A stretch of 64,000 nucleotides of DNA, taken from positions 201,711-265,710 of the forward strand of contig JAVZBY010000002.1 of assembly GCA_038874655.1 (NCBI GenBank), written 5' to 3'. The position numbers and the translations under genes were made by a program. Each line of letters opens with the position of its first letter. The first letter of the stretch is position 1. This stretch comes from Candidatus Woesearchaeota archaeon. Lineage in GTDB: Archaea > Nanobdellota > Nanobdellia > Woesearchaeales > GW2011-AR15. The notes beneath the pieces are model-generated. The model saw nothing but the letters and a program-made list of their open reading frames with translations. It ran no database searches and was not told the DNA's origin. Shown piece after piece: positions 7,744 to 63,443 of the stretch.

Positions 7744-7879
7744 GGAATCAAAACACACAAGTATTAAGTAATTGAAAAATAAATGATATTTATAGAGATA
7801 ACAGAGTTTTGTTTATAGAAACAAGGAGAAAATACATTAATACTGCCTAAAAATAATATAAAACACGGAGGTGTTATTA

Positions 7880-10222
7880 ATGCAAATAGGCAAAATAGCA
7901 AAAAAATTAGCTGCCGTAAGCACTGGAGCATTAATGCTTGGTGCAACATTAACGGGAGCATTGGCTGCCTCATATAAATTGGCAGACTACCCAGCACCAT
8001 TCATAAAGAATGGCGTATTAGACAACACAGTTATAGTTGTCGGTAAAGCTGCAGCAACAGCAGATGTTGTTGGAGCAATTGATATAGCAGCAGCATTACA
8101 AGCAGAAGCTGTATCAAAAACTGCAGTAGAAGTAGGAGCAGTAGCACCAACAATTGATAATGGTGTAAAAATAGAAAGAAGCGGAAATAAGTTTAATTTT
8201 GACAATGATATCCAAGATGTTATGGATAAATTGACAAGAACAAACTTAGATTTACTAGAACAAGGAACCTTTAAAGACACAAAAGGTGATAATAGAGGTT
8301 CTCAAACATACAAACAAGAATTACAATTTTATGATGGATTTGGCACATTAATGTTAACACAGCCAAAAGACATGAAAGGTGGTGTTTACTTAGAAATGCC
8401 TAAAAAATCATCAACCTTTTACAGATACTCTTTGGACTTTGACACACCAAATAAATTGTCAACATCCAATACAGCAGATGACTTAAAAGGAAATTCTCTA
8501 GTTATACAAGGTAAAACTTATACAATCTCAGAAGTAAGTTTTGACAGTGCTAATAAAGTACAAAAAATGAAATTGCTTGCAGGAGACAGTTCAGTTTGGT
8601 TAACTCAAGACCAACCCTATACATTAGGAGAACATACTATAACTGTTGTTAGTGTTGAAGACAGTTCAAATCCAGCATGTGGCGTTAATGTAGATGGAGT
8701 CACAAAATGGATTGATCCAGGCACAACAGAAGAATTTAATGGTTTAAAAGTTGGTTTATTAAATGCAAAAGCAGTTAGATCAAAAGACTATGATAGAGAT
8801 GTATGTGAATTATCCTTAGGTTCAAGTGAAATTGTCTTAGAACAAGGAGAACCCGTAGAAGTAAATGGTTATGAAATAGATGGTTCATCAGTTTCTTTCC
8901 TAGGAAATGCATATGAATTTGATGGGTTTACAATTGATTTAAAAACAAACTACATGGATAAAAATATGTACTTGAAAGATGGACAAGCATGGACAGATCC
9001 TGTATTTGGTAACTGGAAAGTTGTTTATGCTGGTACAACTTCTAAAACAGAAACCATCAAAGTTGAATCATTAGGAGATAAAGCAGTATTAACCTTCTAT
9101 AATAGAGATGGTAAAAAAGTAGAAGTTCCATACTACTATGATGAAACAGCAGGAGCAGTATTCTTAGGTAATGATGAAGATGAAAGATTATTATTGCCAG
9201 GTGAATCACATACTTATACAGGAGACTATGATGTAGAAGGAACATTGTTCTTGTATTCAACTCCAGGTGGAGATGTACACTTATTACAAATGACAAGCTT
9301 AAAATGTGACTCTTCATCAAAGAATACAACAACAATTAAAGACTTAACATATGGAACAACAGTAGCAGAAAATGTTGAATTGGCAAATGACTGTAACAAT
9401 GTTGCAGAAACAATTGACATGGGCTCATTAGGACAATTAAAAGTAAATGTTACACCAAAATACATCTACTATGATCCAGCATATGGTTCAGGTAGCAGAT
9501 TTACAAAATATGAAGGTAACTTTACCTTTATGAACTCAACAACAGCAGTATTTACAGAAAAAGCAGGAGATGAATCTCAAGCAGGAGTATTAAGATATGA
9601 TTTAACTTATGACAATGATGACGATGAAATAAAGATAAATGTTCCAACATCTTTAACTTGGGTAAACAATGACCAAGGGGACAGTGATACAAGATGGGCA
9701 TTATTGGGAACAAGTGGACAAAGAAAAGGAAGTATTGTTAAATATGACAACAAGAACAAATTATCATTAGAAATAACCTACCCAGAAGACGATGTCTACG
9801 CAAATGTCTTTGTAGCTCCAGTTGATGCAGAACCAGTTGGAGGTTCAGCAGGTGGAGTAACAGCTGAAAAAGTCAATCCATTCAGTGTTGGATTAGCAGT
9901 ATTAGACACAGATGCAGCAAGCATGACCAAAAACATGATTGTTGTTGGTGGTCCATGTGCAAACACAGTTGCAGCTGAATTATTAGGCAATCCAACAAAC
10001 TGTGGAGAAGGCTTTGAACCTGGAAAAGCAATGTTGAAATTCTTTGACAGAAAAGGAAAAGCAGCATTACTTGTAGCAGGTTATGAAGCTGAAGAAACAT
10101 TAAACGCAGCTTATGTCTTAGCACAACATAACACAAAATACAAAGCAGACTTCGCTAAATTAAATGACGAAGTTGAGCTAGTTGTTGCAGACATGAGCAA
10201 AGTTGTGTTCAACACAGCTTAA
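7880..10222 (+). CDS. S-layer protein (Methanococcales-type N- and C-terminal domains)
   Basis: Signal peptide KIAKKLAAVSTGALMLGATLTGALA; LADYPAPF...IVVGKAAATADVVGAIDIAAAL; C-terminal MIVVGGPCANTVAAEL...LLVAGYEAEET; codon usage visibly less AT-skewed, as for a highly expressed gene. Confidence 0.9.
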   Translation: MQIGKIAKKLAAVSTGALMLGATLTGALAASYKLADYPAPFIKNGVLDNTVIVVGKAAATADVVGAIDIAAALQAEAVSKTAVEVGAVAPTIDNGVKIERSGNKFNFDNDIQDVMDKLTRTNLDLLEQGTFKDTKGDNRGSQTYKQELQFYDGFGTLMLTQPKDMKGGVYLEMPKKSSTFYRYSLDFDTPNKLSTSNTADDLKGNSLVIQGKTYTISEVSFDSANKVQKMKLLAGDSSVWLTQDQPYTLGEHTITVVSVEDSSNPACGVNVDGVTKWIDPGTTEEFNGLKVGLLNAKAVRSKDYDRDVCELSLGSSEIVLEQGEPVEVNGYEIDGSSVSFLGNAYEFDGFTIDLKTNYMDKNMYLKDGQAWTDPVFGNWKVVYAGTTSKTETIKVESLGDKAVLTFYNRDGKKVEVPYYYDETAGAVFLGNDEDERLLLPGESHTYTGDYDVEGTLFLYSTPGGDVHLLQMTSLKCDSSSKNTTTIKDLTYGTTVAENVELANDCNNVAETIDMGSLGQLKVNVTPKYIYYDPAYGSGSRFTKYEGNFTFMNSTTAVFTEKAGDESQAGVLRYDLTYDNDDDEIKINVPTSLTWVNNDQGDSDTRWALLGTSGQRKGSIVKYDNKNKLSLEITYPEDDVYANVFVAPVDAEPVGGSAGGVTAEKVNPFSVGLAVLDTDAASMTKNMIVVGGPCANTVAAELLGNPTNCGEGFEPGKAMLKFFDRKGKAALLVAGYEAEETLNAAYVLAQHNTKYKADFAKLNDEVELVVADMSKVVFNTA

Positions 10223-10455: not shown

Positions 10456-11688
10456 TTATAATAATGGCACACCAACAAAAACATTATCTTTATCTCTGAT
10501 TAATTTAACTTTTATTTTTCCATTTGTTTTAGAACAATTAATTACGCTAATGACTCTGTTTTTAGAAACAGCAATAACAGAATTTTTTAACCTATCTTTT
10601 GCCTTTAATTCCACTTCAATAATATCATTTTTTTTAAATGGCTTTTTTAAAGTTTCATCAGGAACAATTGTTAAATCAGATGTAATTTTAGTTAAATTAA
10701 CATTAATATTGTATTTTTCATTAATTCTTTTTTCTAATTCATTTAATCTTTCATAAAAAACTTTAAAAGGAATCGCATTAACAGGTTTTTTTCCAAAATC
10801 ATACTCTAAAAAATTTTGTATTCCTATATCAGCATTAATTTTTTTAGCAAACAAAACAATTTGTTCTATATCTTCATCATTAATTCCAGGTAACCAAACA
10901 GGAACAATTAAACAATGCGCTTTTTTTGCAACAAATTCAGCAACTTCCATGACTTTTTCAACAGGATAAACAGAATTAGCTAAAAAAGAGGCTTTTTCTC
11001 TATTTAAGCTATGTATAGAAAAATGAAAATGACTTAATCCTGCATTTATTAATCTTTCAGCTCTATCTTTTGTAATTAAAATGCCATTACTAACCATTGA
11101 AATTGCTTTAACTTGTTTATTCTCTCTTATTCTTTTTACTAAATATTCTAAATCACCATATAAACTAGGATCTCCTTGACTTCCAATATGTATAATAACA
11201 GGATTTTTTTTAATATCAATAACTTTATTTAATTCTTCAATTAAATAATCTGCTTCAACAATAATATCAGAATTTCTTTTTGTATGATCTACAGAACAAA
11301 AAATACAATCAATATTACAAGTAGTTAATGGTTTAATTTCAATAGCATTAGTTTTTCTATCAATAATACCAAACTCATTTGAACCAATTAGAGGAATTCC
11401 AGAATTCTTATGCACATATAAAGCAGGTTTATTATTCAATGAACATTTTAATTCACTAAACCCTTTATCCAATAAAAAATTAAACTTTTGTAAAACATTT
11501 GATTCTTTTTTTTCACTTCTAAAAACAAGAGAGTTATTATTATTTTTATCAATTTCAAAATTTCCAATTTCTAATAAATCCTTTTTATTCAAATAAAAAT
11601 AATAAATATTCATAAAAATAACTCTAATCTTTTCATTTTTATCATTAGTTTCAGAAAACCTCAAATTTTCAAAACTTAATTTTACCAT
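10456..11688 (-). CDS. Radical SAM protein (archaeal COG2100-like) with C-terminal beta-rich TRAM-like region
   Basis: CNIDCIFC (CxxxCxxC) within PLIGSNEFGIIDRKTNAIEIKP...SVD; GDPSLY; VPVWLPGIND. Confidence 0.85.
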   Translation of the reverse strand: MVKLSFENLRFSETNDKNEKIRVIFMNIYYFYLNKKDLLEIGNFEIDKNNNNSLVFRSEKKESNVLQKFNFLLDKGFSELKCSLNNKPALYVHKNSGIPLIGSNEFGIIDRKTNAIEIKPLTTCNIDCIFCSVDHTKRNSDIIVEADYLIEELNKVIDIKKNPVIIHIGSQGDPSLYGDLEYLVKRIRENKQVKAISMVSNGILITKDRAERLINAGLSHFHFSIHSLNREKASFLANSVYPVEKVMEVAEFVAKKAHCLIVPVWLPGINDEDIEQIVLFAKKINADIGIQNFLEYDFGKKPVNAIPFKVFYERLNELEKRINEKYNINVNLTKITSDLTIVPDETLKKPFKKNDIIEVELKAKDRLKNSVIAVSKNRVISVINCSKTNGKIKVKLIRDKDNVFVGVPLL

Positions 11689-11690
11689 TT

Positions 11691-13805
11691 TTAGCTTATA
11701 CTTTTTTCTTCTTGTACATTAGTTATATGCTTAATTTTCTTTAAAATATCTATAGTCTTTATAAGTTCTTCATTACTTTCTGCTTTTATTTTTAAAGATA
11801 TTAAAATTGTTTTTTTATGTGGTTTTAAATTAATAGACAGAACATTAATCTTAAAATTACTTAACTGATTTAAAATATCCTCAACAATTCCTAATTTATC
11901 TTCAACATAAACATTGATTGTTTTAATCTGTTCTTTTGGCACATTCCAACAGACATTTACTTTTTTAGTTTTATCTAACGCGTGTATATTTGGACATTTC
12001 TCTTTATGCACTGAAATTGTACCATCTTTCATTCTATAAGCAACAATGGCATCATTAAACTGAGGATTACAGCATTTAGATAACTTTAATTGTCCCTTTT
12101 CCTCACAATATATATATTTTGCCAAATTAATTTTATCTTGCTCTTCTCTTAATTGTTTAGGATCTCGCTCTATTTCAATTCCCAATGCACTTCTAATCTT
12201 TTGTTTAGCTTTATTTGTCACAACAAAACTGAGCCAATTTCTTGATGGTTTTGCGTTTGGATTAGTAATAATATAAACAACATCCCCGCTTTTTAATTTA
12301 TAATCCAATGGAACCAATTTCTTATTAACTTGTGCTTTTGAACAAGTTTCTCCTATTTTTGAATGAACTTCAAAAGCAAAATCAACAGGAGTGGCATTTT
12401 CAGGTAAAATTATAGGATCTCCTTTAGGTGTAAAAACAACAATCTCATTCTCAAACAAATCAACCTTTAAAGAATCTAAAAATTCACTAGGAGCATTCTT
12501 TTTCCATTCTAAAACTTGTTCAAGCCAAGCAATTCTTTTATCAAAAGCTTTATCTCTCTCAGTTCCTTTATAACGCCAGTGTGCAGCAACCCCATATTTA
12601 GCTACTTGATGCATTTCTAGAGTTCTTATTTGAACTTCACAAATAGTATTAAAAGGAGTTACAACATCAGTGTGTAATGATTGATAACCATTTGACTTTG
12701 GAACTGCAATATAATCTTTAAATCTACCTGGAATTGGTTTCCATAATTGATGTATCTCAGCTAAAACCCTATAACAATCTGGTATAGTTTTAACAATAAT
12801 TCTGACAGCAATTAAATCATAAATCTCTTCAAAGCTTCTTTTTTCTAATATCATCTTCCTATAAATGCTATAAAAATACTTTGCTCTACCACTAACTTCT
12901 AAAAACTCAATATTAGATTCATTTAATTTCTTTTTAATCATATCCATAATAAGCTTTGCTTTTTTTTCTCTTTCAGCTCTTTTTTCATTAACTTTATTTT
13001 TTATATATTGATAAATATCTGGTTTTAAATACCTCAGAGATAAATCTTCCAATTCACCTTTCAAATTATACAATCCTAATTTATGAGCAATTGGAGCATA
13101 AATCTCTAGAGTTTCTTTAGCAATTCTTTGCTGTTTATCTTCTCTTAAATATTTCAATGTTCTCATATTGCTTAATCTGTCAGCCAATTTAATTAAAATA
13201 ACTCTAAAATCTTTTATAGTAGCTAAAAGAAGTTTTCTCCAATTTTCAGCTGTATAATCCTCTGGACTTTCAAAACTAGCTTTGTTTGTTTTTGTTTCTC
13301 CTTCAACTAAAGAAGCAACTTCTTCGCCAAACTCTTTTTTTATATCCTCTAAATTATATTCTGTTTCTTCAACAATGTCATGAAGCAAAGCAGCACATAT
13401 AGTAGCAGTATCAGGCTTATACTCTAAAAGAATTTTAGCAACAGAAACAGGATGCTCGAAATAATCTTTTCCAGATTCTCTTTTTTGTCCTTGATGGGCT
13501 TTTCTTGCAAAATTATATGCTTTTTCAATGAGCTTTAAATCTGCTTTTTTATCATAAGAAGCAACCTCATTTAAAATAAACTTTAATTCTTTATCAAAAT
13601 CCATAGGGATATCCTTTCTTTCAATTTCATCTAAAATTAAATCAACTTCATCTTTTTCTTTTAATAGATTATCATTCTCATTATTATTTTGGCTATTATT
13701 TAAACTATTATTTTCCTTATTTAATTCAGATTTATTAATTTCTTTTATCTCATCTATGTTATTACTTATACTTTTATTTAAATCATTGTTCATATAAATA
13801 GGCAT
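11691..13805 (-). CDS. rel: Long RelA/SpoT homologue, bifunctional (p)ppGpp synthetase/hydrolase-type
   Basis: HD domain (AHQGQKRESG, ALLHDIVEE, KLADRLSNMRTL), synthetase (RFKDYI, NGYQSLH, EVQIRT, GVAAHWRYK), TGS (FTPKGD...ATPVDFAFEVHS), zinc finger (SKCCNP...VHKEKC), C-terminal ACT. Confidence 0.95.
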   Translation of the reverse strand: MPIYMNNDLNKSISNNIDEIKEINKSELNKENNSLNNSQNNNENDNLLKEKDEVDLILDEIERKDIPMDFDKELKFILNEVASYDKKADLKLIEKAYNFARKAHQGQKRESGKDYFEHPVSVAKILLEYKPDTATICAALLHDIVEETEYNLEDIKKEFGEEVASLVEGETKTNKASFESPEDYTAENWRKLLLATIKDFRVILIKLADRLSNMRTLKYLREDKQQRIAKETLEIYAPIAHKLGLYNLKGELEDLSLRYLKPDIYQYIKNKVNEKRAEREKKAKLIMDMIKKKLNESNIEFLEVSGRAKYFYSIYRKMILEKRSFEEIYDLIAVRIIVKTIPDCYRVLAEIHQLWKPIPGRFKDYIAVPKSNGYQSLHTDVVTPFNTICEVQIRTLEMHQVAKYGVAAHWRYKGTERDKAFDKRIAWLEQVLEWKKNAPSEFLDSLKVDLFENEIVVFTPKGDPIILPENATPVDFAFEVHSKIGETCSKAQVNKKLVPLDYKLKSGDVVYIITNPNAKPSRNWLSFVVTNKAKQKIRSALGIEIERDPKQLREEQDKINLAKYIYCEEKGQLKLSKCCNPQFNDAIVAYRMKDGTISVHKEKCPNIHALDKTKKVNVCWNVPKEQIKTINVYVEDKLGIVEDILNQLSNFKINVLSINLKPHKKTILISLKIKAESNEELIKTIDILKKIKHITNVQEEKSIS

Positions 13806-23136: not shown

Positions 23137-23278
23137 GCGGATGTGCCGGAGTGGTCAAACGGGATAGGCTTAGGTGTGATGAGCCATATACTAAATTTTT
23201 AAATCAAAAAATAAGGGCAATGACATTAAGACACCTATTGGCTTAGTGCCTGCGCAGGTTCGAACCCTGCCGTCCGCA
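23137..23278 (+). tRNA. tRNA-Leu(UAG) with 58-nt intron at 37/38 (intron 23175-23232)
   Basis: Acceptor GCGGATG/CGTCCGC plus A; anticodon arm ATAGG-CTTAGG[intron]A-CCTAT; CTTA/TAAG central helix of a canonical bulge-helix-bulge; long variable arm; GCAGG-TTCGAAC-CCTGC. Confidence 0.94.
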
Positions 23279-51955: not shown

Positions 51956-52029
51956 TGGGGTCCCTGGGATTTGAACCCAGATCACAAGATCCCGAATCTT
52001 GTATTCTAGCCAAGTTAAACTAAGACCCC
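51956..52029 (-). tRNA. tRNA-Pro(CGG)
   Basis: Acceptor GGGGTCT/GGACCCC plus A; anticodon arm CAAGA-TTCGGGA-TCTTG; CTGGG-TTCAAAT-CCCAG. Confidence 0.94.
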
Positions 52030-52115
52030 TTTTATCAAACATTTTTTAAAAATAGAAATAAATATATAAAAAATATTTATAAAAAATATTTTATAATACT
52101 AGCTTTTTTAACTAT

Positions 52116-52811
52116 TTAACCTAACTCAACATAAATAAAGTAAGTAGCAAATCCAGTTAATTTATCAACAGGAACTAATAATTGGAAATCTACTTCTGTG
52201 CCATTAAAACCGATTCTGTCATTTTCCATTAAAACTGTGTAAATTGTATTTGTTTCATTAGTGTTTAGTAATACATTCCAAAAAACAGCTTGTGCATTTG
52301 TACTATTATGTGTTCTTGTTGCCCTACAATTTGATAAAAATTTTCCAGCTATATCAAAACTAGGATGATTTGTGTAAATAAAAGTATCATTTATTCCATC
52401 AGAAGTTTCATTCATGATATTTAATCTTTCTTCTTCTAAATAAATTTCTGTTTGATTTGTGCATTTAACATTACTCCAGTCATTAACAAAATTTCTTGTT
52501 GCAATTATTTCTCCAATAGCATCAACAACATTCCAATCATAAAAAATATCTCCATTAGCATTTTCTAAAACAATTCCACCAGAAACTCTACCAAAAAAAC
52601 CTTGCCATACATTTGTTATTTGTGTTAAATCAGCATTAACCCAAGTAATATTTCCGTTTTGTGCTGTTAAATTTGTTGCATTTGAAATTGGTCTTCTTGA
52701 GGATTCTCCAATAATTAAATTAGCTCCAGAAGGTTCAGCAAATATATTTTTTATAAAAAAAACCAACAATAAAAAAACAAAAAAATATTTTACTTTATTT
52801 AATATATTCAT
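52116..52811 (-). CDS. Secreted beta-rich surface glycoprotein, function unknown
   Basis: Signal peptide; WQGFFGRVSG and VDFQLLVP motifs; nine N-x-T sequons; two Cys. Confidence 0.75.
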   Translation of the reverse strand: MNILNKVKYFFVFLLLVFFIKNIFAEPSGANLIIGESSRRPISNATNLTAQNGNITWVNADLTQITNVWQGFFGRVSGGIVLENANGDIFYDWNVVDAIGEIIATRNFVNDWSNVKCTNQTEIYLEEERLNIMNETSDGINDTFIYTNHPSFDIAGKFLSNCRATRTHNSTNAQAVFWNVLLNTNETNTIYTVLMENDRIGFNGTEVDFQLLVPVDKLTGFATYFIYVELG

Positions 52812-53362
52812 AATCCCACCCTCTTTAAAAAATTGTGATAATTGCCAATTTGAAATTTATTAGCAGAAAATTTAAAATTCTGTAAAATTTGAAAAACTCT
52901 AAACTCACTTAAATCTAAATTTTTTGCAATATTTTCAATAAAAACACCATTCAAATAAGCATGTAAAACATGATAATATCTCAATTTTATAGGATTGAAA
53001 TTTGAATCATAATCTTTTGTGTAGTATCTTATAATTTGATTTACTCTTTTTTCAGAAATATTTTTACCTTGTCTTGAAAAAAACAAAAAATCTTCTTTTG
53101 CTAGTTTATTTCCTTCTATGAATAATGATAAATCCTTAGCTAATTTTCCACTGATTAAAACAAACCTATTATTTAATCTTATTTTATTGCCCAAAATATC
53201 TTTAATTTTTATATTAACTAATTCATTTGGCAAGCAACCTGTCTCATAAAGAACTCTAAAAATCAAATTATCTCTGGCATTTTTAATATTTGAAATTATT
53301 TCTCTAATCTCTTTCATAGATAAAAAAATTTCTTTGTTGTATGATTTTATGACAGGAACCAT
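52808..53362 (-). CDS. Tyrosine recombinase-like catalytic-domain protein, active site degenerate
   Basis: RDNLIFRVLYETGCLPNELVNIKIKDI (box I), SRQGKNISEKRVNQII, NPIKLRYY...GVFIENIAKNL (box II). Confidence 0.75.
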   Translation of the reverse strand: MVPVIKSYNKEIFLSMKEIREIISNIKNARDNLIFRVLYETGCLPNELVNIKIKDILGNKIRLNNRFVLISGKLAKDLSLFIEGNKLAKEDFLFFSRQGKNISEKRVNQIIRYYTKDYDSNFNPIKLRYYHVLHAYLNGVFIENIAKNLDLSEFRVFQILQNFKFSANKFQIGNYHNFLKRVGL

Positions 53363-53807
53363 TTTCTTTTTTTCTGTTTTTATTTTATTTTTTATTTATT
53401 TAATTATAGTTTTATATGCTTTTTATACAAAAGTGATATTAAATTGTTTTTTAGGCAAATAATATTCTTTTTTTATTTACCAATATATTTTTTTGTTTAT
53501 TAGTATTTAATTAGTATTTTTATGTATATTAATGGAAATTATTTCTAAATAATTATATATAAAAAGAAACTGATATATAAATGTTTTGTTTTTATCAATT
53601 AGTATATAAAAAAGTATACTATTTGTAATATTTCATTATTTTTCCTTTAAAGAATAACCTGAGAGGAATAATGAAGTATTTTATCGTTGATGAAACGGAA
53701 ATAAAAATAAAGATGAAAATCCTAATTAAATATTGACACATTAGAATATGAAAAAAATTAGAATATGAAAAAATGAAACAAATAAAAGAATACAATGAAT
53801 AATTGTA

Positions 53808-53882
53808 TAGCGGGGGAAAGATTTGAACTTCCGACCTTTGGGTTATGAGCCCAACGGGCACTCCTAGCTGCCCTACCCCGCT
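53808..53882 (-). tRNA. Initiator tRNA-Met(CAU)
   Basis: A1-U72 acceptor AGCGGGG/CCCCGCT, three consecutive G-C pairs in TTGGG-CTCATAA-CCCAA. Confidence 0.95.
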
Positions 53883-57083: not shown

Positions 57084-57776
57084 ATGAATTTGACAGATTT
57101 AAAAGAAAGAATATTTGGTAATAAATTCAATTTAGACAATACTTTTTTAAAATCCTTTTATGAAAATTATTTTTTCAACAATGAAATAAAAAATAGTTTT
57201 TTTCATAATATTAATGAAAAAAACAGAGATAATTCTTTACTTGAAGAGATTTTAGAAGAATTAGTAAAAGAAAAAACAATTGTTTTTAAAAATAACAACT
57301 TCTTGGAGGAAAATTTAGAAGAAAAAACATTGCAAGAAAAAATTTCAAAATTAAATAACACCGTTTTTATAATTGAAGAGGAAAAATTAGATGATAAACG
57401 AATCTTTTTATATGAATTCTTTCCAAACACATATTATGTTTATCTAAAAAGAAAAATAACTGAAGATGATAAAAAAGAACAAAATAAAAACAATAAAAAA
57501 CTAAATGAAGATATATATGGCTCTTTTGGATACTTTAGCTTATTTGTTCCAACAGGGGTTATTGTTAATAGAGTTCCTCAAAGTGTTTTAGGAAATGGTG
57601 TTTTAGGAAGGGCTTTTATTTATAGTAATTATATAGAGATATTGGATTCTTTAGTAGGAAATGAATATATTGAAGTTTTAACTCATGAAGTTTTACACAT
57701 ATTATATCCTGAAAAAAAAGAAATGGAAATAAGAATGATTACTAGGAATTATTTAGGGAATACAGTTTATAATTAG
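57084..57776 (+). CDS. Hypothetical protein with C-terminal HExxH (zincin-like) motif
   Basis: GVLGRAF...VLTHEVLHILYPEKKE. Confidence 0.65.
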   Translation: MNLTDLKERIFGNKFNLDNTFLKSFYENYFFNNEIKNSFFHNINEKNRDNSLLEEILEELVKEKTIVFKNNNFLEENLEEKTLQEKISKLNNTVFIIEEEKLDDKRIFLYEFFPNTYYVYLKRKITEDDKKEQNKNNKKLNEDIYGSFGYFSLFVPTGVIVNRVPQSVLGNGVLGRAFIYSNYIEILDSLVGNEYIEVLTHEVLHILYPEKKEMEIRMITRNYLGNTVYN

Positions 57777-57862
57777 AATTTATTTTTTGAAATATTTTAT
57801 TTTACTTATTATTACTCTTAAATAACAATATCTTTAAATATAATTTATTTTTTTTTTAACTT

Positions 57863-59458
57863 ATGTCATTAGAGGAAAGAGTTGCAAAAGCAGCATTAAA
57901 AATTATAGGTAAAACTATAAGAAATTTAGTTATTGGAGGGACAATAGCAGTAGGATTATTATATGGTGGTTATAGGTTAGGTTTGATTAAAGTTCCTTTA
58001 TTAGATCAATATAATCAACCATCAATATCAACTGTTGAACAGATGCAAAAGCAATTTTCTCAAGAAATAGAAAGTTTAGGAAATTTAATGACAGGAAATT
58101 GGGACTATGGTAATAGTCAAGAAGTAACATTACCAAGTGGACAAACAGTTGAATTAAAACAATTAGAACCAATTACTTACAATGTAATAGATATATTTAA
58201 CAGTTCTGCTCAACAAAGTATACCTATTGCAATAAGTAGCAGTAATCCTGGTGCTTGTCAACAACCTTCTTTATGTATAATTTTTTATACAAATATACCT
58301 ACACAACCACAAAATTATTTTTTTTTACCTTCATTTGCAAACACTATTCTAAGTTATTGGAAAGGTGATATTGGACTTTTAGATTTTTTGAATAATTTAT
58401 ATAAATCACCAATCCCGGGCTTAAAAGATATATTAGATTCATTTAATTTATTAATAGTTAATTTAAAGGGTGGGGAAGAAATTAAATTTGTAACTTTAAT
58501 TCAGCCAAATGGTAACATAAATTTACAAGAAATTGGAAGTACAGAAATTAATGAGATAGCATTACAGAATGGAAAAAATTATTATGAGATTCCTGGTGTT
58601 GTTTTAGAAACAAAAGTAGGTTTTCCTTTAAGTAGTATATCTGCAAACACAACTGATGCTTATAATGGAAATGCTATTATCTCTTTTCAAACATTAACTG
58701 TATTACCTAAAAATCTAAGACCTGAAACTTATTTTTCAAAACCTGCTTCCACTCCGGAAGAACATGAAAAAAGATTAGTAAATTATATCCAAGAGATTAG
58801 CAAATATGGATTAGTATCAATATCAATAAAACAAGAATATGAAGCAAACAGGCAAGTTGTTATAGTTTTTCCTGAATCTGGAATTGATGTTTCACAATTT
58901 GATATGTTAGGAAGATTCCCAAATGCAGTAGAATTAATTTATTTAAATGATGGTGATCCTAATAATCCAAATAGAAATAACGAATTATTAAAATATTGGA
59001 GAAGTTCACAAGGTCCAAATAAACAAACAACACTGGTTTCTGCTTATCAAGATTTGAGAAATTTAAGACAAACATCTTGTCAAGTTGCTCAATGGTTAAA
59101 AGAGGATGGCTTTAATGTTCAACCAGGAATTAGTGAGCCATGTTATGAGCCAAATGGACAAATTCAAAGGCCTGATTGGCTTGATTTATATGAGCAAAGA
59201 TTAAAAGAAGAACAAGCAAAATTAGTACAACAATCAATAGAAACTATTACTAATGCTATTCCTCAAATGCCTGATTTATGCGCAATGTGGACAGACAATG
59301 CAAGAAATTTATTAGGTCCTGATTGCAAACAAACTAATTCACAAACATTAAAAGTCTATGTTCCTGAGAATATGGTATCTTTATTACAAGCTTGGGCACA
59401 AATGTATCAAGCAACTTTTGGCGGCACAATTGAAATTTTACCATTGCCTCAACAATAG
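57863..59458 (+). CDS. Membrane-anchored hypothetical protein
   Basis: Single N-terminal TM helix (LVIGGTIAVGLLYGGY), Gln/Pro-rich, six Cys; no recognised family. Confidence 0.75.
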   Translation: MSLEERVAKAALKIIGKTIRNLVIGGTIAVGLLYGGYRLGLIKVPLLDQYNQPSISTVEQMQKQFSQEIESLGNLMTGNWDYGNSQEVTLPSGQTVELKQLEPITYNVIDIFNSSAQQSIPIAISSSNPGACQQPSLCIIFYTNIPTQPQNYFFLPSFANTILSYWKGDIGLLDFLNNLYKSPIPGLKDILDSFNLLIVNLKGGEEIKFVTLIQPNGNINLQEIGSTEINEIALQNGKNYYEIPGVVLETKVGFPLSSISANTTDAYNGNAIISFQTLTVLPKNLRPETYFSKPASTPEEHEKRLVNYIQEISKYGLVSISIKQEYEANRQVVIVFPESGIDVSQFDMLGRFPNAVELIYLNDGDPNNPNRNNELLKYWRSSQGPNKQTTLVSAYQDLRNLRQTSCQVAQWLKEDGFNVQPGISEPCYEPNGQIQRPDWLDLYEQRLKEEQAKLVQQSIETITNAIPQMPDLCAMWTDNARNLLGPDCKQTNSQTLKVYVPENMVSLLQAWAQMYQATFGGTIEILPLPQQ

Positions 59459-59582
59459 TCAATCAATTAAAGTATTTTTTCTTCTCTTCATATTAATAAA
59501 ATAAAGTTAAAAAACAAATACTTATAATGTTATTACTAATAAATAGTAAAATTTATATAATGGTTTTTATTTTTTTAAAATA

Positions 59583-61253
59583 ATGAAAAGAATTAAAGGA
59601 TATTATAATTCTAGCAATAAAGGAGTAGAATCAAGATTATTGCAACCTTTGAGAGTAAAACCAAAAAGAAGAGAAAAGCAATCAAAAGAACAATTAATAA
59701 AGAGAGACCATTTACCAATAAGAATTGAGAATCCTCCTTATGAAATACAAGGTAATTTAAATCAATGGTTATATTCTTGGGCTTTATATTTAAATGAAAA
59801 TTTGATTAATTTAGTTTGTGAAATAACAAATACAACACAACCACCAGGAGATATAAATGAAATAATTAGTAATACCCAATTAAATATGGAAGAGGTTATT
59901 GAAAGATTATTAAATTTTAGAGAAAATTTACCAAAACCACCAGAATTTTTAAGATCTTATTTAACAGACCAACAAAAAAGAAAACATCAAAGATGGATTA
60001 ATTATTATAATGAAAGATGGAAAAATGCAAGAAATACTGTTGATAATTTATTATATGGTTATGGACTCTTTGAATGGAGAAACTTTGCAAATGCATTTAA
60101 TAAATTTTATAATCCTCACCAGACTAATTTACAAATACAAAATCCAGAGCATAATCAAAAATTTAATAATATATACAACCACTTTTTTAATTGTTTAAAA
60201 ATAAACCTAAGCCTTGCCTCAAGAAATAATATAAGATATAGGGGTATAAATTATGCAGAAAAAAGCAGAAATAACTTATTAAACTTAGTTGATATTTATC
60301 ACCAAAGAATTTTGCCTGAAGGAATTAAATTGAATAAATTAACTTTAGATAATTTCTTTGATGTTTTTGATGCTATATTGGATGAACATTCTTTAAGAAG
60401 GGAAAAAGGACAAAATAAACATTTCTTAGAGGAATTAGCTTCAAGATTTAGTAATTATTATTTTAGTGAGTTTGCTTTTGCTTCTATGGTTTTAAATATA
60501 CAAATACCAAGTCAAATATCACCAGAACAATATGAACAGATAAAAACAAATTTAACTTCTGCATATGCTCTTGTTCATAAAGTTTTAGAAAAGGCAATTG
60601 AATTAAAAAAAAGAGAAAAACATAAAGAGTTTTATGGAAAAATTGCTGATTTTTTTATTTCTTATGGCTTAGATATTTTAAGTAAGTATTTTTCACAATT
60701 TTTAAATTTTAATGCTGTTGATATTGAAACAGCTGTTAGCAATTATTTATTTTTAATTCAAGCTTTACCTGAAAAAAAGAAGGAGATCTCTACAATTATT
60801 GATAAAAGTTTATATTTTGAAATTCAAAGATTAATTGATTATAATACCCAACTAAATAAAGAATTTAAACCAGAGTTTTATAATGCTGTTTTAGATTATG
60901 CAAGAAAAACAAAAAATGCATTTGATAAATTAAAAGAATATTGCCTAAATAATGAAAATAATAATGAATCTAATTTAAGCATTATTGTAAAAGGAGGAGT
61001 TTTAGGATTAACTATTCAATATATACAAATTGCAGGATTAGGTATTGTTAATAATTTGATTGAAGTTAATGAAGTTGTTCAATATATTAAAAGCATTATT
61101 GAAGAGCCTTTTTTTAATCAAGATGAGAGATTTATGCAAAGATTTAATGATCTGTTATTACAAAGCACAACTTATTTTGCACAATTAGGTGCTAGATATC
61201 CTGAGACACATTCTAAATTTGAAGAATTTTACACTAAATTACAAAAAGTTTAA
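59583..61253 (+). CDS. Hypothetical helical protein
   Basis: 556-aa ORF with own TATA-like box; no recognised motif. Confidence 0.75.
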   Translation: MKRIKGYYNSSNKGVESRLLQPLRVKPKRREKQSKEQLIKRDHLPIRIENPPYEIQGNLNQWLYSWALYLNENLINLVCEITNTTQPPGDINEIISNTQLNMEEVIERLLNFRENLPKPPEFLRSYLTDQQKRKHQRWINYYNERWKNARNTVDNLLYGYGLFEWRNFANAFNKFYNPHQTNLQIQNPEHNQKFNNIYNHFFNCLKINLSLASRNNIRYRGINYAEKSRNNLLNLVDIYHQRILPEGIKLNKLTLDNFFDVFDAILDEHSLRREKGQNKHFLEELASRFSNYYFSEFAFASMVLNIQIPSQISPEQYEQIKTNLTSAYALVHKVLEKAIELKKREKHKEFYGKIADFFISYGLDILSKYFSQFLNFNAVDIETAVSNYLFLIQALPEKKKEISTIIDKSLYFEIQRLIDYNTQLNKEFKPEFYNAVLDYARKTKNAFDKLKEYCLNNENNNESNLSIIVKGGVLGLTIQYIQIAGLGIVNNLIEVNEVVQYIKSIIEEPFFNQDERFMQRFNDLLLQSTTYFAQLGARYPETHSKFEEFYTKLQKV

Positions 61254-61307: not shown

Positions 61308-63443
61308 ATGCTCTTTTCATTAAAAAGAATTGTTCAAGTAGGTTTGTTATTAAGTGGATTATTTATTTCACTTTATAATACGGGTTTAGCAAACTCTTTT
61401 GATTTAATTAATCCACAATCTCAACAGCCACCTGCATGTGAAATTTTTCAAAATTATGATCCAAAATCAGCACCAACAGAAATTAACGAAATTTTTTCAG
61501 ATCCTAATTTTCAAAACGCAATTTGTTCTTTAAAAGGAAGTGTGCTTATAGTTGATAGTGAAGGTAAGGAAGTAAACTATTTAGATTTTAATCCATATGG
61601 AGAGACAGGAGGATATAGATATTTAACAGTTAAATTTCCTAAAATAGTTTTGACACCATTGATTAATTTTGAGTCAATACCTCCTTCTTTTGAAAATAAG
61701 GCAATAGGTCCATCAGGATTTCATATGGGCGCAGATTATACAAGTATTTTATATGATCCTACAGGAGAGTATACAATTATAGATTCAAATGGAAATAAAA
61801 TTCCAATTAACATTCATAGAATGCAAGCATTCTTTAAAAGACCAGAGGGATTAGAAGCAACAATAGTAGAAGAAACATGGCCACAGGGTTATGGTAAAAA
61901 TGGAATATTAATAAAACTTGGTAGTTATAATGATTGGGAATTACAATTAAGAATTGGACATGGGATTTTTCCTAATCAAAATGCTTTAATTGAAGATGAA
62001 GATGAAATAAAACAAATATTAGATTATTTAAATCAACAAATTAAAGAAAATCCAGAAAAATTTGTTCATGTAGCTGATTCAGGAATGGAAGGTGCAGCAA
62101 ATGGACATCCTCATTATCATGTAGAGCTTTCTTTATTAAATCCTAAAACAGGAAGACGTGTTTTTTTAGATCCTACCTTTACTGTAATTTTAAATCAACA
62201 TCCTGAAAACGTTTCTTCAATAAATAATTTAGTAGAACAAAAAAAACTTTCAGATAATGATTTAGTTAATGAATATATTGAATTTCTAAGACAAAGCCCT
62301 GAAGCAAGAGCACTTTTATTAACTATTGCGAGAAATGAAAGTGGATATAACTTTGATGCTAAAAACCCTAATTCAAGTGCTTATGGTTTTTTTCAAATTA
62401 TTGATTCAACAAATCAAGAACTTAATAAAAAAGGTTTTCCAGATAATAATAATAATAAAGAAACACAATTAGCAAAAGGTGCTTATCTTTTGGAGAGTAG
62501 AATAAAATTATATACTACTAAAGACCCAACAACATTTTTAAAAGAATTAACAAAAGAAGAACTTATTGATTTTTTAAATAAAGAATTACAGTGTGAATGG
62601 GCAGGAACACCAGGCACTTGTTTACAATCTAGAGGTTTTAATAATCAATATTATCCAGAAAATTATGGTTTTTCATCTTGGGAAAAAGCTCAAGAAGAAT
62701 TCTGGGAAACTTACAAAATACATTTAGAAATTTCTAAAAAAGGAGAAGATTTAATATCAACATTAATAGGAGAGGTTCAATTACCAAATGAAAGAGAAAG
62801 TGCATCTGAAATATCTTTAATAGATTATCTCAAACAACATCCAGATTTAGTTTTAGTTAATAACACTTTTAGAAAACAAGGTGTAAAAGGTCCTGAAGAA
62901 TGTAGAGAGGGAGAACTTTGGTTTATGGAAGGGAGTTTAAGACAAACACCTTTACCAGAAAAAGCAAATGCTTATACTTGTAATAAGGGACATTGGGACG
63001 AAATTCAAACTTTTAATCTAGAAGGTGTTAATTTAGAAGACTATACAAATAAAAGAGTACTACCTGATACACAGCAACAACAGTATAAACTTCCAGATTA
63101 TTTAAGAAATAGTCTTCAAATAAGTGGTGATGGTAGTGTTATATTTAACCCAAAGGAGCAATGGTTTCCAAATTATGAACAAAATCCTTTTTCATTTTTC
63201 TTGATTCCTGAAATAGACCAAGAAGGAAAAATACCTTTTTATCAAATACAAATTGCACCAGGTGTAATCTTAACTTTTAGAAAAGAAGAAGGCTCATTTA
63301 ATCTTTCAGAAATTTTTGATTTACAAAGAGAAATTTATTCCTCTTTAATGAATAGAGAAAATATTGAATTAAACTATGGAAGGTTAGTCAAAATTGAATT
63401 ACCTTATAGTGAATTTGAAGAATTAATATTAAAAAATCCATAA
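61308..63443 (+). CDS. Secreted M23 peptidase plus lysozyme-like (SLT/muramidase) fusion, probable peptidoglycan hydrolase
   Basis: Signal peptide; M23 motifs FHMGADY (HxxxD), LRIGH, HPHYHVEL (HxH), FLDP; lysozyme-like IARNESG, SAYGFFQII, EWAGTPG. Confidence 0.8.
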   Translation: MLFSLKRIVQVGLLLSGLFISLYNTGLANSFDLINPQSQQPPACEIFQNYDPKSAPTEINEIFSDPNFQNAICSLKGSVLIVDSEGKEVNYLDFNPYGETGGYRYLTVKFPKIVLTPLINFESIPPSFENKAIGPSGFHMGADYTSILYDPTGEYTIIDSNGNKIPINIHRMQAFFKRPEGLEATIVEETWPQGYGKNGILIKLGSYNDWELQLRIGHGIFPNQNALIEDEDEIKQILDYLNQQIKENPEKFVHVADSGMEGAANGHPHYHVELSLLNPKTGRRVFLDPTFTVILNQHPENVSSINNLVEQKKLSDNDLVNEYIEFLRQSPEARALLLTIARNESGYNFDAKNPNSSAYGFFQIIDSTNQELNKKGFPDNNNNKETQLAKGAYLLESRIKLYTTKDPTTFLKELTKEELIDFLNKELQCEWAGTPGTCLQSRGFNNQYYPENYGFSSWEKAQEEFWETYKIHLEISKKGEDLISTLIGEVQLPNERESASEISLIDYLKQHPDLVLVNNTFRKQGVKGPEECREGELWFMEGSLRQTPLPEKANAYTCNKGHWDEIQTFNLEGVNLEDYTNKRVLPDTQQQQYKLPDYLRNSLQISGDGSVIFNPKEQWFPNYEQNPFSFFLIPEIDQEGKIPFYQIQIAPGVILTFRKEEGSFNLSEIFDLQREIYSSLMNRENIELNYGRLVKIELPYSEFEELILKNP

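Follow-up and report, generated by a model that had tools for sequence, protein, structure and literature searches.

The 64,000-nucleotide window analysed here, the whole stretch of DNA from a Candidatus Woesearchaeota archaeon, carries a gene that we lean towards reading as an intact bifunctional Rel, which would have been acquired once from bacteria, kept by selection and left with a compact tRNA sensor half. The ORF lies on the reverse strand and encodes 704 amino acids without internal stops. Its product scored 666.4 bits against the NCBIfam profile TIGR00691 spoT_relA, for which the cutoff is 499.2, and judged by its sequence the ORF is a genuine long RelA/SpoT homologue (RSH). In a sequence search of the PDB the best match was B. 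subtilis Rel (6yxa, 510 bits), with mycobacterial Rel (8fr8) also matched, and the top Foldseek matches were RelA on the 70S ribosome, B. subtilis Rel and full-length SpoT (5iqr, 6yxa and 7qpr). Structures of SAS enzymes were found among the Foldseek matches only as weak and partial hits. Identity as a SAS, SAH or toxSAS was ruled out based on the presence of the regulatory half and the five-domain architecture (Pfam), and membership in the monofunctional RelA subgroup was ruled out by the intact HD sites and the motif RFKD instead of EXDD. The features of the gene and its immediate surroundings are as follows.

11691..13805, reverse strand: long RSH (Rel-type) gene, 704 aa (TIGR00691, Pfam domains and Foldseek)
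13605..13805, reverse strand: N-terminal extension rich in Asn, Asp, Glu and Lys, residues 1-67 (ORF comparison and frame statistics)
13602..13604, reverse strand: ATG of Met68, a possible alternative start (conserved start in orthologues)
13071..13520, reverse strand: HD (hydrolase) domain, residues 96-245 (Pfam HD_4, 159 bits)
12561..12890, reverse strand: SYNTH domain, residues 306-415 (Pfam RelA_SpoT, 142 bits)
12264..12443, reverse strand: TGS domain with H481, residues 455-514 (Pfam TGS, 65 bits)
12090..12182, reverse strand: short linker at the place of the AH domain, residues 542-572 (alignments and AF2 model)
11931..12089, reverse strand: zinc-finger (ZFD/RIS) domain, residues 573-625, with C578, C579, H600 and C604 (ligand conservation)
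11712..11921, reverse strand: RRM/ACT domain, residues 629-698 (Pfam ACT_4, 30.8 bits, cutoff 27)
10456..11688, reverse strand: radical-SAM gene, 2 nt downstream of the Rel gene (MoaA-like, 68 bits, cutoff 231)

The initial annotation had described all of the domains of a long RSH, and each of its elements was recovered, with HD_4, RelA_SpoT, TGS and ACT_4 found by Pfam together with the Zn ligands, the RFKD motif and the TGS His. It had also reported a helical region between TGS and zinc finger that is much shorter than in bacterial Rel, an Asn-rich N-terminal extension, and the substitutions HDIVEE, DRLSN and AKYG; all of these are present in the window protein, the extension being restricted to the window genus. 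Overall, the gene is real and functional-looking.

At the place of the AH (helical) domain, which comprises ~100-125 residues in bacterial Rel, the window protein has a linker of 33 aa. This interval measured 90-129 aa in 118 of 151 aligned rows, and in the alignment with mycobacterial Rel 8fr8 the step from query residue 555 to 573 corresponded to a step from 559 to 661 of the chain. Short linkers, of 32-42 aa, were observed in every one of the 62 members of the archaeal clade, and no PF19296 match was listed for the proteins of that clade. In the AF2 model the linker has a single 7-residue helix and no helical domain, and pLDDT falls below 50 at ORF residues 547-558. The AH domain is absent clade-wide. 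We have kept the window protein in the long-RSH family, in a reduced form, because the profile cutoff was passed and the AH domain is regulatory rather than catalytic. No description of the AH deletion was found in print, the search having covered passages of a 2021 survey (PMC8407392).

Strong reduction of the AH domain is not confined to the archaeal clade, as it is shared by the Caldisericia-labelled Rel proteins (the P0143 group), in which the linker is 46-58 aa, or ~15-20 aa longer than the archaeal linker, the total length is 657-688 aa, and for which no PF19296 match was listed either. Those proteins are bacterial, and they form a clade of their own with good support (SH-aLRT 99); in the best tree this clade and the archaeal one are not sisters. 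By analogy, the Caldisericia-labelled clade suggests that a Rel can work with an AH domain that is much reduced. The clade-wide loss in archaea and the independent bacterial reduction together provide a natural test of what the AH domain contributes to the sensing of starved ribosomes.

When RelA is bound to the ribosome, its AH domain, together with the two linker helices of that domain, touches the A/R tRNA and packs against ACT, and the AH domain also bridges TGS to the RIS there (PMC4974054). The absence of this domain may mean that ribosome-dependent or tRNA-dependent activation has been lost or altered. The remainder of the sensor half is well preserved. H481 of the TGS domain is equivalent to H432 of E. 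coli RelA and H420 of B. subtilis Rel, a residue whose role is the recognition of the CCA end (PMC7797070), and it is His in all 62 clade members and in all 22 bacterial references. The four Zn ligands are equally constant (62/62 and 22/22), and residues corresponding to N640 and W657 are kept in 55 and 60 of the 62 clade members, respectively. Because many of the conserved positions serve as structural Zn ligands, this conservation of the ZFD is not proof of ribosome contact. In the ACT domain, the Asp that is in contact with uL16 in E. coli RelA (D675; PMC4974054) has an equivalent that is also Asp in 55/62 clade members; the published contacts of RelA with uL16 or uS19 are small and mediated by rRNA (PMC4974054). 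Both the ZFD and the RRM/ACT domain are folded in the AF2 model, with block-mean pLDDT of ~76-89. E. coli RelA (5iqr, 5kpv), the top Foldseek match, shares the sensor logic of the C-terminal half, its H432, C612/C613/H634/C638 and D675 all being represented in the window protein. It differs in being monofunctional and ribosome-activated, with a dead hydrolase (0/10 HD sites), EXDD instead of RXKD, and an AH domain at aa 485-580 that binds the A/R tRNA (PMC4974054) and is lacking in the window protein. On balance, a dependence of the window Rel on tRNA and the ribosome is plausible, albeit with slightly more doubt than confidence on our part.

We propose the following working for such a Rel. 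The SYNTH domain, being of the RFKD type, would make (p)ppGpp from ATP and GTP or GDP, the Mn-dependent HD domain would degrade it, and the C-terminal half would reciprocally control synthesis versus hydrolysis. The compact sensor would consist, in order, of the TGS domain, a tether of ~33 residues, the zinc finger and the RRM/ACT domain. The most likely trigger would be uncharged tRNA on a stalled archaeal ribosome, with the TGS His reading the free CCA end of that tRNA, the zinc finger and RRM acting as the anchor, and the flexible tether substituting for the AH scaffold. A true (p)ppGpp stringent response in Woesearchaeota-type DPANN, in which an AH-less Rel would dock on the archaeal ribosome via its zinc finger/RRM, the TGS His would sense uncharged tRNA, and the alarmone would act on archaeal translation GTPases and nucleotide-salvage enzymes, is a tentative proposal that we consider rather unlikely to hold in full. 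If true, alarmone signalling would be documented in Archaea for the first time, and nature would in effect have performed an experiment in which the AH domain proved dispensable for starved-ribosome sensing.

A possible, though on the whole doubtful, alternative is that the enzyme is ribosome-independent and SpoT-like. Its C-terminal domains would then be an intramolecular switch or a sensor of a small ligand (e.g., a metabolite on the ACT fold), and its main role would be the buffering or hydrolysis of (p)ppGpp, or the response to signals that do not involve uncharged tRNA. The ribosomes of archaea are unlike those of bacteria, on which the ancestral Rel docked, and this difference counts towards such an enzyme, as does the low-confidence tether that is all the AF2 model shows between TGS and zinc finger. 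The lack, in 62 of 62 clade members, of the AH domain that makes contact with the A/R tRNA and links TGS to RIS (PMC4974054) favours it as well, as does the behaviour of B. subtilis Rel, which off the ribosome is a net hydrolase (PMC7797070). However, the His that stacks on the CCA end of tRNA is constant in the clade, no part of the protein is under tighter constraint than the TGS and ZFD (dN/dS of 0.05 and 0.02), and the uL16-touching Asp is kept in most members. These three features could instead reflect a role in autoregulation.

Returning to the bifunctional Rel that we prefer, its catalytic half shows close agreement with bacterial enzymes. The HD site comprises R109, H118, H142-D143, E146-E147, D209, S212, N213 and T216, the catalytic residues being assigned partly after RelSeq work. 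Eight of these 10 sites are identical to those of the 22 bacterial bifunctional references, as compared with none of 10 in the control, the pseudo-hydrolase E. coli RelA. The corresponding SYNTH residues are R307, K309, D330, RFKD at 361-364, YQSLH at 374-378, E390 and H409, and these are invariant or nearly so across the 62 archaeal clade members and the 22 references. Within the clade, the hydrolase residues, those of the RFKD-type synthetase, the TGS His and the zinc-finger residues show no variation or nearly none. The RXKD motif is of the Rel/SpoT type and has been linked to the handling of G nucleotides (PMC3153485), and D264 of B. subtilis Rel is functionally important (PMC7797070). Based on these residues, the window protein very probably has both activities, synthesis and hydrolysis.

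The three substitutions affect E147, which is the Asp of the ED pair in 22/22 bacterial references, S212, which is the His of DRLHN in 22/22, and K403, which is the Glu of AEYG in 21/22. They were considered as a signature of the archaeal clade, and this was rejected as they are lineage-specific, the E147, S212 and K403 states being present in only 22, 2 and 21 of the 62 members, respectively. The hydrolase could be weakened in the window genus by the changes to E147 and S212, because two positions that are invariant in the 22 bacterial references are altered.

The protein most resembles Bacillota Rel (6yxa/6htq; S. aureus 7oiw; RelSeq 1vj7) in its order of HD-SYNTH-TGS-...-ZFD-RRM, in an identity of 44-52% over the NTD and TGS (Foldseek rows 6yxa, 7oiw, 8acu and 1vj7), and in the shared hydrolase and synthetase residues, RXKD motif, TGS His and Zn ligands. 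It is unlike them in its shorter linker (the Priestia and Bacillus references have 116-118 aa there), in having E147, S212 and K403 together with a genus-specific low-complexity N-terminal tail, and in its archaeal host, so that any ribosome partner would be archaeal.

It is improbable that the synthetase has come to make a different product or act on a different target, as would be the case with (p)ppApp or with the pyrophosphorylation of tRNA ends carried out by some toxic small alarmone synthetases, or that the enzyme handles the alarmones of a partner organism. DPANN archaea are mostly ectosymbionts, according to the passages covered of PMC8407392, and K403 replaces an otherwise conserved Glu, both of which would suit such a change. 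However, K403 is the sole departure among the 17 SYNTH sites examined, the other 16, including RXKD, being as in bacterial Rel, and the architecture is that of a long RSH and not of a toxSAS. In addition, no signal peptide or secretion context was apparent.

The bifunctional Rel is also well embedded in its genome. The contig, of 274 kb, is compositionally uniform and clearly archaeal, and archaeal genes flank the Rel gene on both sides. The gene has a GC content of 0.282 as compared with a window mean of 0.259 +/- 0.035, and its codon-usage cosine ranks 46 of 54. Among sequencing runs, X1 contained a share of 0.93 of the sampled words and may derive from the source sample, X2 contained 0.38, and an RNA run (X4) contained 0.07, a share that does not amount to evidence of expression. 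Its dN/dS was 0.079 over the core (635 codons) and 0.10 in the RRM/ACT domain, and strong purifying selection is seen in every domain. That the gene is an artefact or relic, i.e., a mis-binned or mis-assembled bacterial fragment or a decaying recent transfer, is barely credible even though long RSHs are overwhelmingly bacterial, as the gene lies >58 kb from either contig end among archaeal neighbours and is native in composition, both of its junctions recur in an independently assembled genome of the same genus (G001), orthologues occur in closed single-contig genomes of the same family (G016) and of another family of the order (G035), and the reading frame has neither stops nor a relaxed dN/dS. 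The AT-rich, archaeal context described in the initial annotation was thus borne out, and two of the objections it had raised, an assembly chimera and an isolated recent transfer under relaxed selection, are ruled out by these findings and by the wide distribution of orthologues.

Orthologues were found in 17 of 19 genomes of the same family, and 161 of the 401 genomes sampled across the phylum had a match above the cutoff. In phylogenetic analyses, the archaeal sequences were monophyletic (26 rows, SH-aLRT 98) and nested within the diversity of bacterial Rel; the clade is called archaeal here on the basis of source names carried by some of its rows, the basal P0125, P0126, P0227 and P0242 being without a name. 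The sequences nearest to the clade were P0264 and P0255, and the deep nodes of the trees were weak, with support of 81-89. The named bacterial references were drawn from at least 80 bacterial loci among the matches listed in the contig scan. The trees point to a single bacterial origin of the archaeal Rel clade, such that a DPANN ancestor (Woesearchaeota/Nanoarchaeia-labelled) would have taken the gene once from bacteria and purifying selection would have acted on it since. The phylogeny and the survey across DPANN that had been suggested as checks hence gave one clade inside bacterial Rel, present in a large part of the phylum, and the notion of a domesticated Rel agrees with the native composition, lineage-wide spread, single clade and purifying selection.

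The premise that such an archaeal gene is new is outdated. The presence of the gene is already known, both from GenBank, in which the closest proteins (87% identical) are named [quoted passage not shown], and from the 2021 survey, which in the passages covered reported RelA/SpoT in 41.7% of Woesearchaeota and predicted a bacterial origin (PMC8407392). The DPANN proteins of that survey are of the same family as ours, and their frequency is close to the 161/401 found here. The same passages give frequencies and the prediction of LGT, and do not mention the AH deletion, architecture, residue conservation or selection (PMC8407392). For the domain organisation and biochemistry of long RSHs from archaea our literature search yielded only this survey; Fig. 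S34 of the survey and the supplements of a separate study (Jimmy et al., bioRxiv 10.1101/575399) may include these proteins. A 2026 paper (PMC13725321), in the part covered, still describes (p)ppGpp as a bacterial and plant molecule, and reviews likewise place it in bacteria and plants. As an apparently bifunctional Rel is present in ~40% of the sampled genomes of the phylum, the use of (p)ppGpp by archaea is directly testable with one recombinant protein.

Additional observations were made on the surroundings of the gene and on the rest of the genome. The radical-SAM gene is probably co-transcribed with the Rel gene; its orthologue was present at only one (L003, of the same genus) of 11 orthologue loci, and a functional RSH-rSAM unit was rejected as the pairing is genus-specific. 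In other genera, an archaeal pyrH adjoins the Rel gene at 8 of 10 loci. The Rel gene was the sole match when its own genome was searched with Pfam HD_4, and no second synthetase was found there (next best SYN match, E 0.09). A clade-specific HD profile revealed a second, divergent HD-like (HDxxED) ORF at C4:69647-70951, the possibly related product of which could be a second hydrolase of the circuit.

The N-terminal extension was found only in the window protein and in that of L003. The proteins of the clade are ~635 aa in length, and among the 12 longest ORFs of orthologues, 6 start at a Met equivalent to M68. That the extension is purely an artefact of ORF calling was rejected, as the probability of its frame being open by chance is ~0.0003, the other two frames having 10 and 22 stops. 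Its GC content by codon position is coding-like, and its dN/dS of 0.59 (46 aligned codons) indicates that it is fast-evolving. Based on these frame statistics, the extension is probably translated.

The RSH gene, an ORF at 11691..13805 (-) with a product of 704 aa, is real and native to its genome. Sequence evidence points to a working, bifunctional (p)ppGpp enzyme of the Rel type that has a bacterial origin and is fixed in a large DPANN clade. Its C-terminal sensor is compact, without the alpha-helical (AH) domain that lies between TGS and the zinc finger (ZFD/RIS) in bacterial long RSHs. The domains and features listed in the initial annotation were all found where claimed. Pfam recognized the four domains listed here, and the protein scored 666 bits against TIGR00691 (spoT_relA, NCBIfam), for which the curated cutoff is 499.

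Pfam domains of the RSH protein
residues 96-245: HD_4
residues 306-415: RelA_SpoT
residues 455-514: TGS
residues 629-698: ACT_4

The closest solved relatives by sequence were B. subtilis Rel (6yxa, 510 bits) and mycobacterial Rel (8fr8_I, 473 bits). An AlphaFold2 model, for which the input was the 62 sequences of the archaeal-type RSH clade, had a mean pLDDT of 84.8 and a pTM of 0.66, and its best Foldseek matches were RelA on the 70S ribosome (5iqr), B. subtilis Rel (6yxa) and full-length SpoT (7qpr).

The gene is located at ~213.4-215.5 kb on a contig of 274 kb, in a genome of 1.26 Mb and 17 contigs (completeness 97.3%, contamination 0.27%). It had been described as AT-rich like its neighbours and embedded among archaeal genes, and this description held: its GC (0.282) and GC3 (0.155) are within the range of the window genes (0.259 +/- 0.035 and 0.134 +/- 0.027, n = 54), and few of them have a more typical codon usage (cosine 0.957, rank 46 of 54). 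Archaeal genes in the window include those for aIF6, aIF1A, prefoldin, proteasome alpha, SBDS, exosome Rrp4/Rrp41/Rrp42, RNase P Pop5 and PAC2, and an archaeal S-layer protein gene directly adjoins the RSH gene. The S-layer gene at 7871-10222 (+) has the highest GC of the window genes (0.351 against a mean of 0.259).

Three explanations that the initial annotation had named as potentially fatal to its reading, an assembly chimera, a recent isolated transfer and relaxed selection, are contradicted by our data. Decay of the gene is ruled out by the dN/dS (NG86) of its core relative to the same-genus orthologue, which was 0.079 over 635 codons in a comparison whose dS of 0.98 is near saturation. 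By region, the ratios (NG86, same orthologue) were 0.13 for HD, 0.05 for SYNTH, 0.05 for TGS, 0.15 for the linker, 0.02 for ZFD and 0.10 for RRM, the last domain. A lone transfer is ruled out by the distribution survey that the initial annotation had proposed. Of the family's 19 other genomes, 17 have a near-full-length orthologue, completeness being 90% and 76% in the two that lack one, and orthologues were present in 7/21 genomes from other families of the order. Across the phylum, TIGR00691 was matched at its curated cutoff in 161 of 401 sampled genomes, each at least 90% complete and including six unpublished genomes, none of which was positive. A chimeric assembly is effectively ruled out by the order hypothetical gene, RSH gene, radical-SAM gene, which recurs in an independently assembled genome of the same genus (G001, locus L003), and by orthologues in two closed genomes of one contig each, G016 from the same family and G035 from a different family of the order.

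The radical-SAM protein (410 aa, 10456-11688 (-)) starts 2 nt past the RSH stop codon and resembles MoaA only weakly (68 bits, cutoff 231). About 110 aa at its N-terminus and ~130 aa at its C-terminus are uncharacterised, and its pairing with RSH is conserved within the genus only. At RSH loci of other genera, an archaeal-type UMP kinase (pyrH_arch, TIGR02076, 160.7 bits, cutoff 158) adjoins the RSH gene in 8/10 cases (L004-L011 of L004-L013), often transcribed divergently from it, and PAC2 is close by in three of these. Two uncharacterised families, of ~230 aa and ~133 aa, also recur in L004-L011. The synteny of UMP kinase and RSH is lost in the window.

Phylogenetic analyses, likewise proposed in the initial annotation, placed the archaeal clade within bacterial diversity. 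In a FastTree analysis of 145 representatives, 13 of the 14 short-linker sequences grouped with the window protein in one clade (support 94). In an IQ-TREE quick search (LG+C20 PMSF, 71 rows, 599 columns, linker columns removed), 26 rows designated archaeal formed a single clade (SH-aLRT 98) that branched inside the diversity of bacterial phyla. The designation drew on the list of homologues and the FastTree analysis; archaeal names are borne by some of these rows only, and the four at the base are unnamed. One of these basal rows, P0227, has its best matches within the class (45-49% identical) in orders other than that of the window. The weakly supported sister (89) of the archaeal clade comprised one Riflebacteria-named sequence and two unnamed long-linker sequences. 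Linkers of 46-58 aa were found in a separate clade (99) that includes Caldisericia-named proteins.

The existence of the archaeal gene is already published (PMC8407392) and annotated, and the premise of the initial annotation that long RSHs are bacterial or plastid has been overtaken. The closest database proteins, 87% identical, are named 'RelA/SpoT family protein [Candidatus Woesearchaeota archaeon]' by their source, and further listed homologues are labelled Nanoarchaeota or archaeon. Atkinson et al. 2011 (PMC3153485) found no archaeal RSHs other than small ones and list the lack of long RSHs as an archaeal feature. Our literature search turned up no publication that describes the architecture or the biochemistry of a long RSH from an archaeon.

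Catalytic and sensor residues were compared in an alignment of the clade (62 members, 39-88% identity to the window protein) with 22 named bacterial long RSHs from genome records and with E. coli RelA (MG1655). At the hydrolase sites the window protein matched the bacterial references at 8/10 positions. E. coli RelA, a known pseudo-hydrolase, matched at 0/10, and the comparison is therefore discriminating. Unlike RelA, whose HD domain is decayed, the window protein keeps all HD residues bar two substitutions. The alignment of the clade (A1) suggests that occasional hydrolase-dead variants occur; D143 is replaced by Q and E146 by S in 1/62 members each, maybe in the same protein. At the SYNTH sites examined (R307, K309, D330, RFKD, YQSLH, E390, H409 and others), window, clade and bacteria agree except at K403. 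With its RFKD motif the protein follows Rel and SpoT, which have RXKD, and differs from RelA, which has EXDD (PMC3153485). In the sensor region the four Zn ligands are invariant, and H481 of TGS, a His in 62/62 clade members, aligns with H432 of E. coli RelA. This His contacts uncharged tRNA by stacking on its CCA end, and replacing it by Glu (H432E/H420E) abolishes activation (PMC7797070). The ACT Asp equivalent to D675, which in RelA touches uL16 (PMC4974054), is Asp in 55/62 members.

The helical region between TGS and the zinc finger had been noted as much shorter than in bacterial Rel, and measurement bore this out. Defined as the segment from the post-TGS 'KIRxxL' motif to the zinc finger, in the window protein and 150 representatives of the nearest 50%-identity clusters, this linker is 33 aa in the window protein versus 90-129 aa in 118/151 rows; its range over the whole clade (n = 62) is 32-42 aa. 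HMMER aligned residues 555 to 573 of the query with residues 559 to 661 of the 8fr8 chain, and by alignment the protein has no AH core and little of either linker helix. The AlphaFold2 model has a single 7-residue helix in the linker and pLDDT < 50 at ORF residues 547-558. PF19296 appears in precomputed Pfam lists on proteins of ~720 aa and not on short forms. In RelA, Linker helix 1 passes beneath the acceptor arm and reaches TGS, Linker helix 2 is packed against ACT, and the protein is anchored at bridge B1a through RIS and ACT (PMC4974054). Loss of AH with retention of the RIS, ACT and TGS residues points to an archaeal protein in which the anchor and the CCA reader are kept and the scaffold between them is gone.

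The substitutions HDIVEE, DRLSN and AKYG (the last being K403) were present as first described, at positions (near-)invariant in the bacterial sample (D 22/22, H 22/22 and E 21/22). As a clade signature they were rejected, none being clade-defining: the ED pair has E in 22/62 members and D in 35/62, DRLHN has S in 2/62 (the window protein and its congener), and AEYG has K in 21/62. The three substitutions may modulate activity; a weakened hydrolase in this genus is possible.

The N-terminal extension is also present, as 67 codons before M68, and is genus-specific. Clade proteins are ~635 aa long, 6 of the 12 longest orthologue ORFs begin at a Met equal to M68, and the frame is open upstream of M68 only in the window (67 codons) and the congener (46 codons). 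The tail is low-complexity and poorly conserved (dN/dS 0.59). It is probably translated, because 67 stop-free codons have a probability of about 0.0003 given local composition, the other two frames are interrupted by 10 and 22 stops, and the GC pattern over codon positions resembles that of coding sequence.

A search of the genome with Pfam RelA_SpoT and HD_4 found the RSH gene as sole match; no second synthetase was found in the genome. A profile of the clade HD region gave one further weak match (E 7e-5), a 434-aa ORF outside the window, on another contig (C4:69647-70951(-); locus L100:2148-3452). In a 58-residue alignment to the HD core (hhalign probability 74.5%, E 2.7e-5) its R...HP...HDxxED residues are intact, and Pfam gave a sub-threshold HD match only. 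This very divergent RSH-type hydrolase core could represent a second alarmone hydrolase.

Other features were observed in the window. A tRNA of 142 nt at 23137-23278 (+) was called by Rfam (43.6 bits) and is absent from the ARAGORN calls; it is probably an intron-containing archaeal tRNA, based on the length of the span and the missed call. Between tRNA-Pro and tRNA-Met, a phage-integrase-family ORF (184 aa, 52808-53362) overlaps an unknown ORF of 231 aa, and this region (51956-53882) may be what is left of an integrated element. A 711-aa protein of this archaeon, at 61308-63443 (+), contains a peptidoglycan-cleaving fold, the SLT lytic-transglycosylase domain, and upstream of its gene are three large ORFs without a Pfam match (57084-61253).
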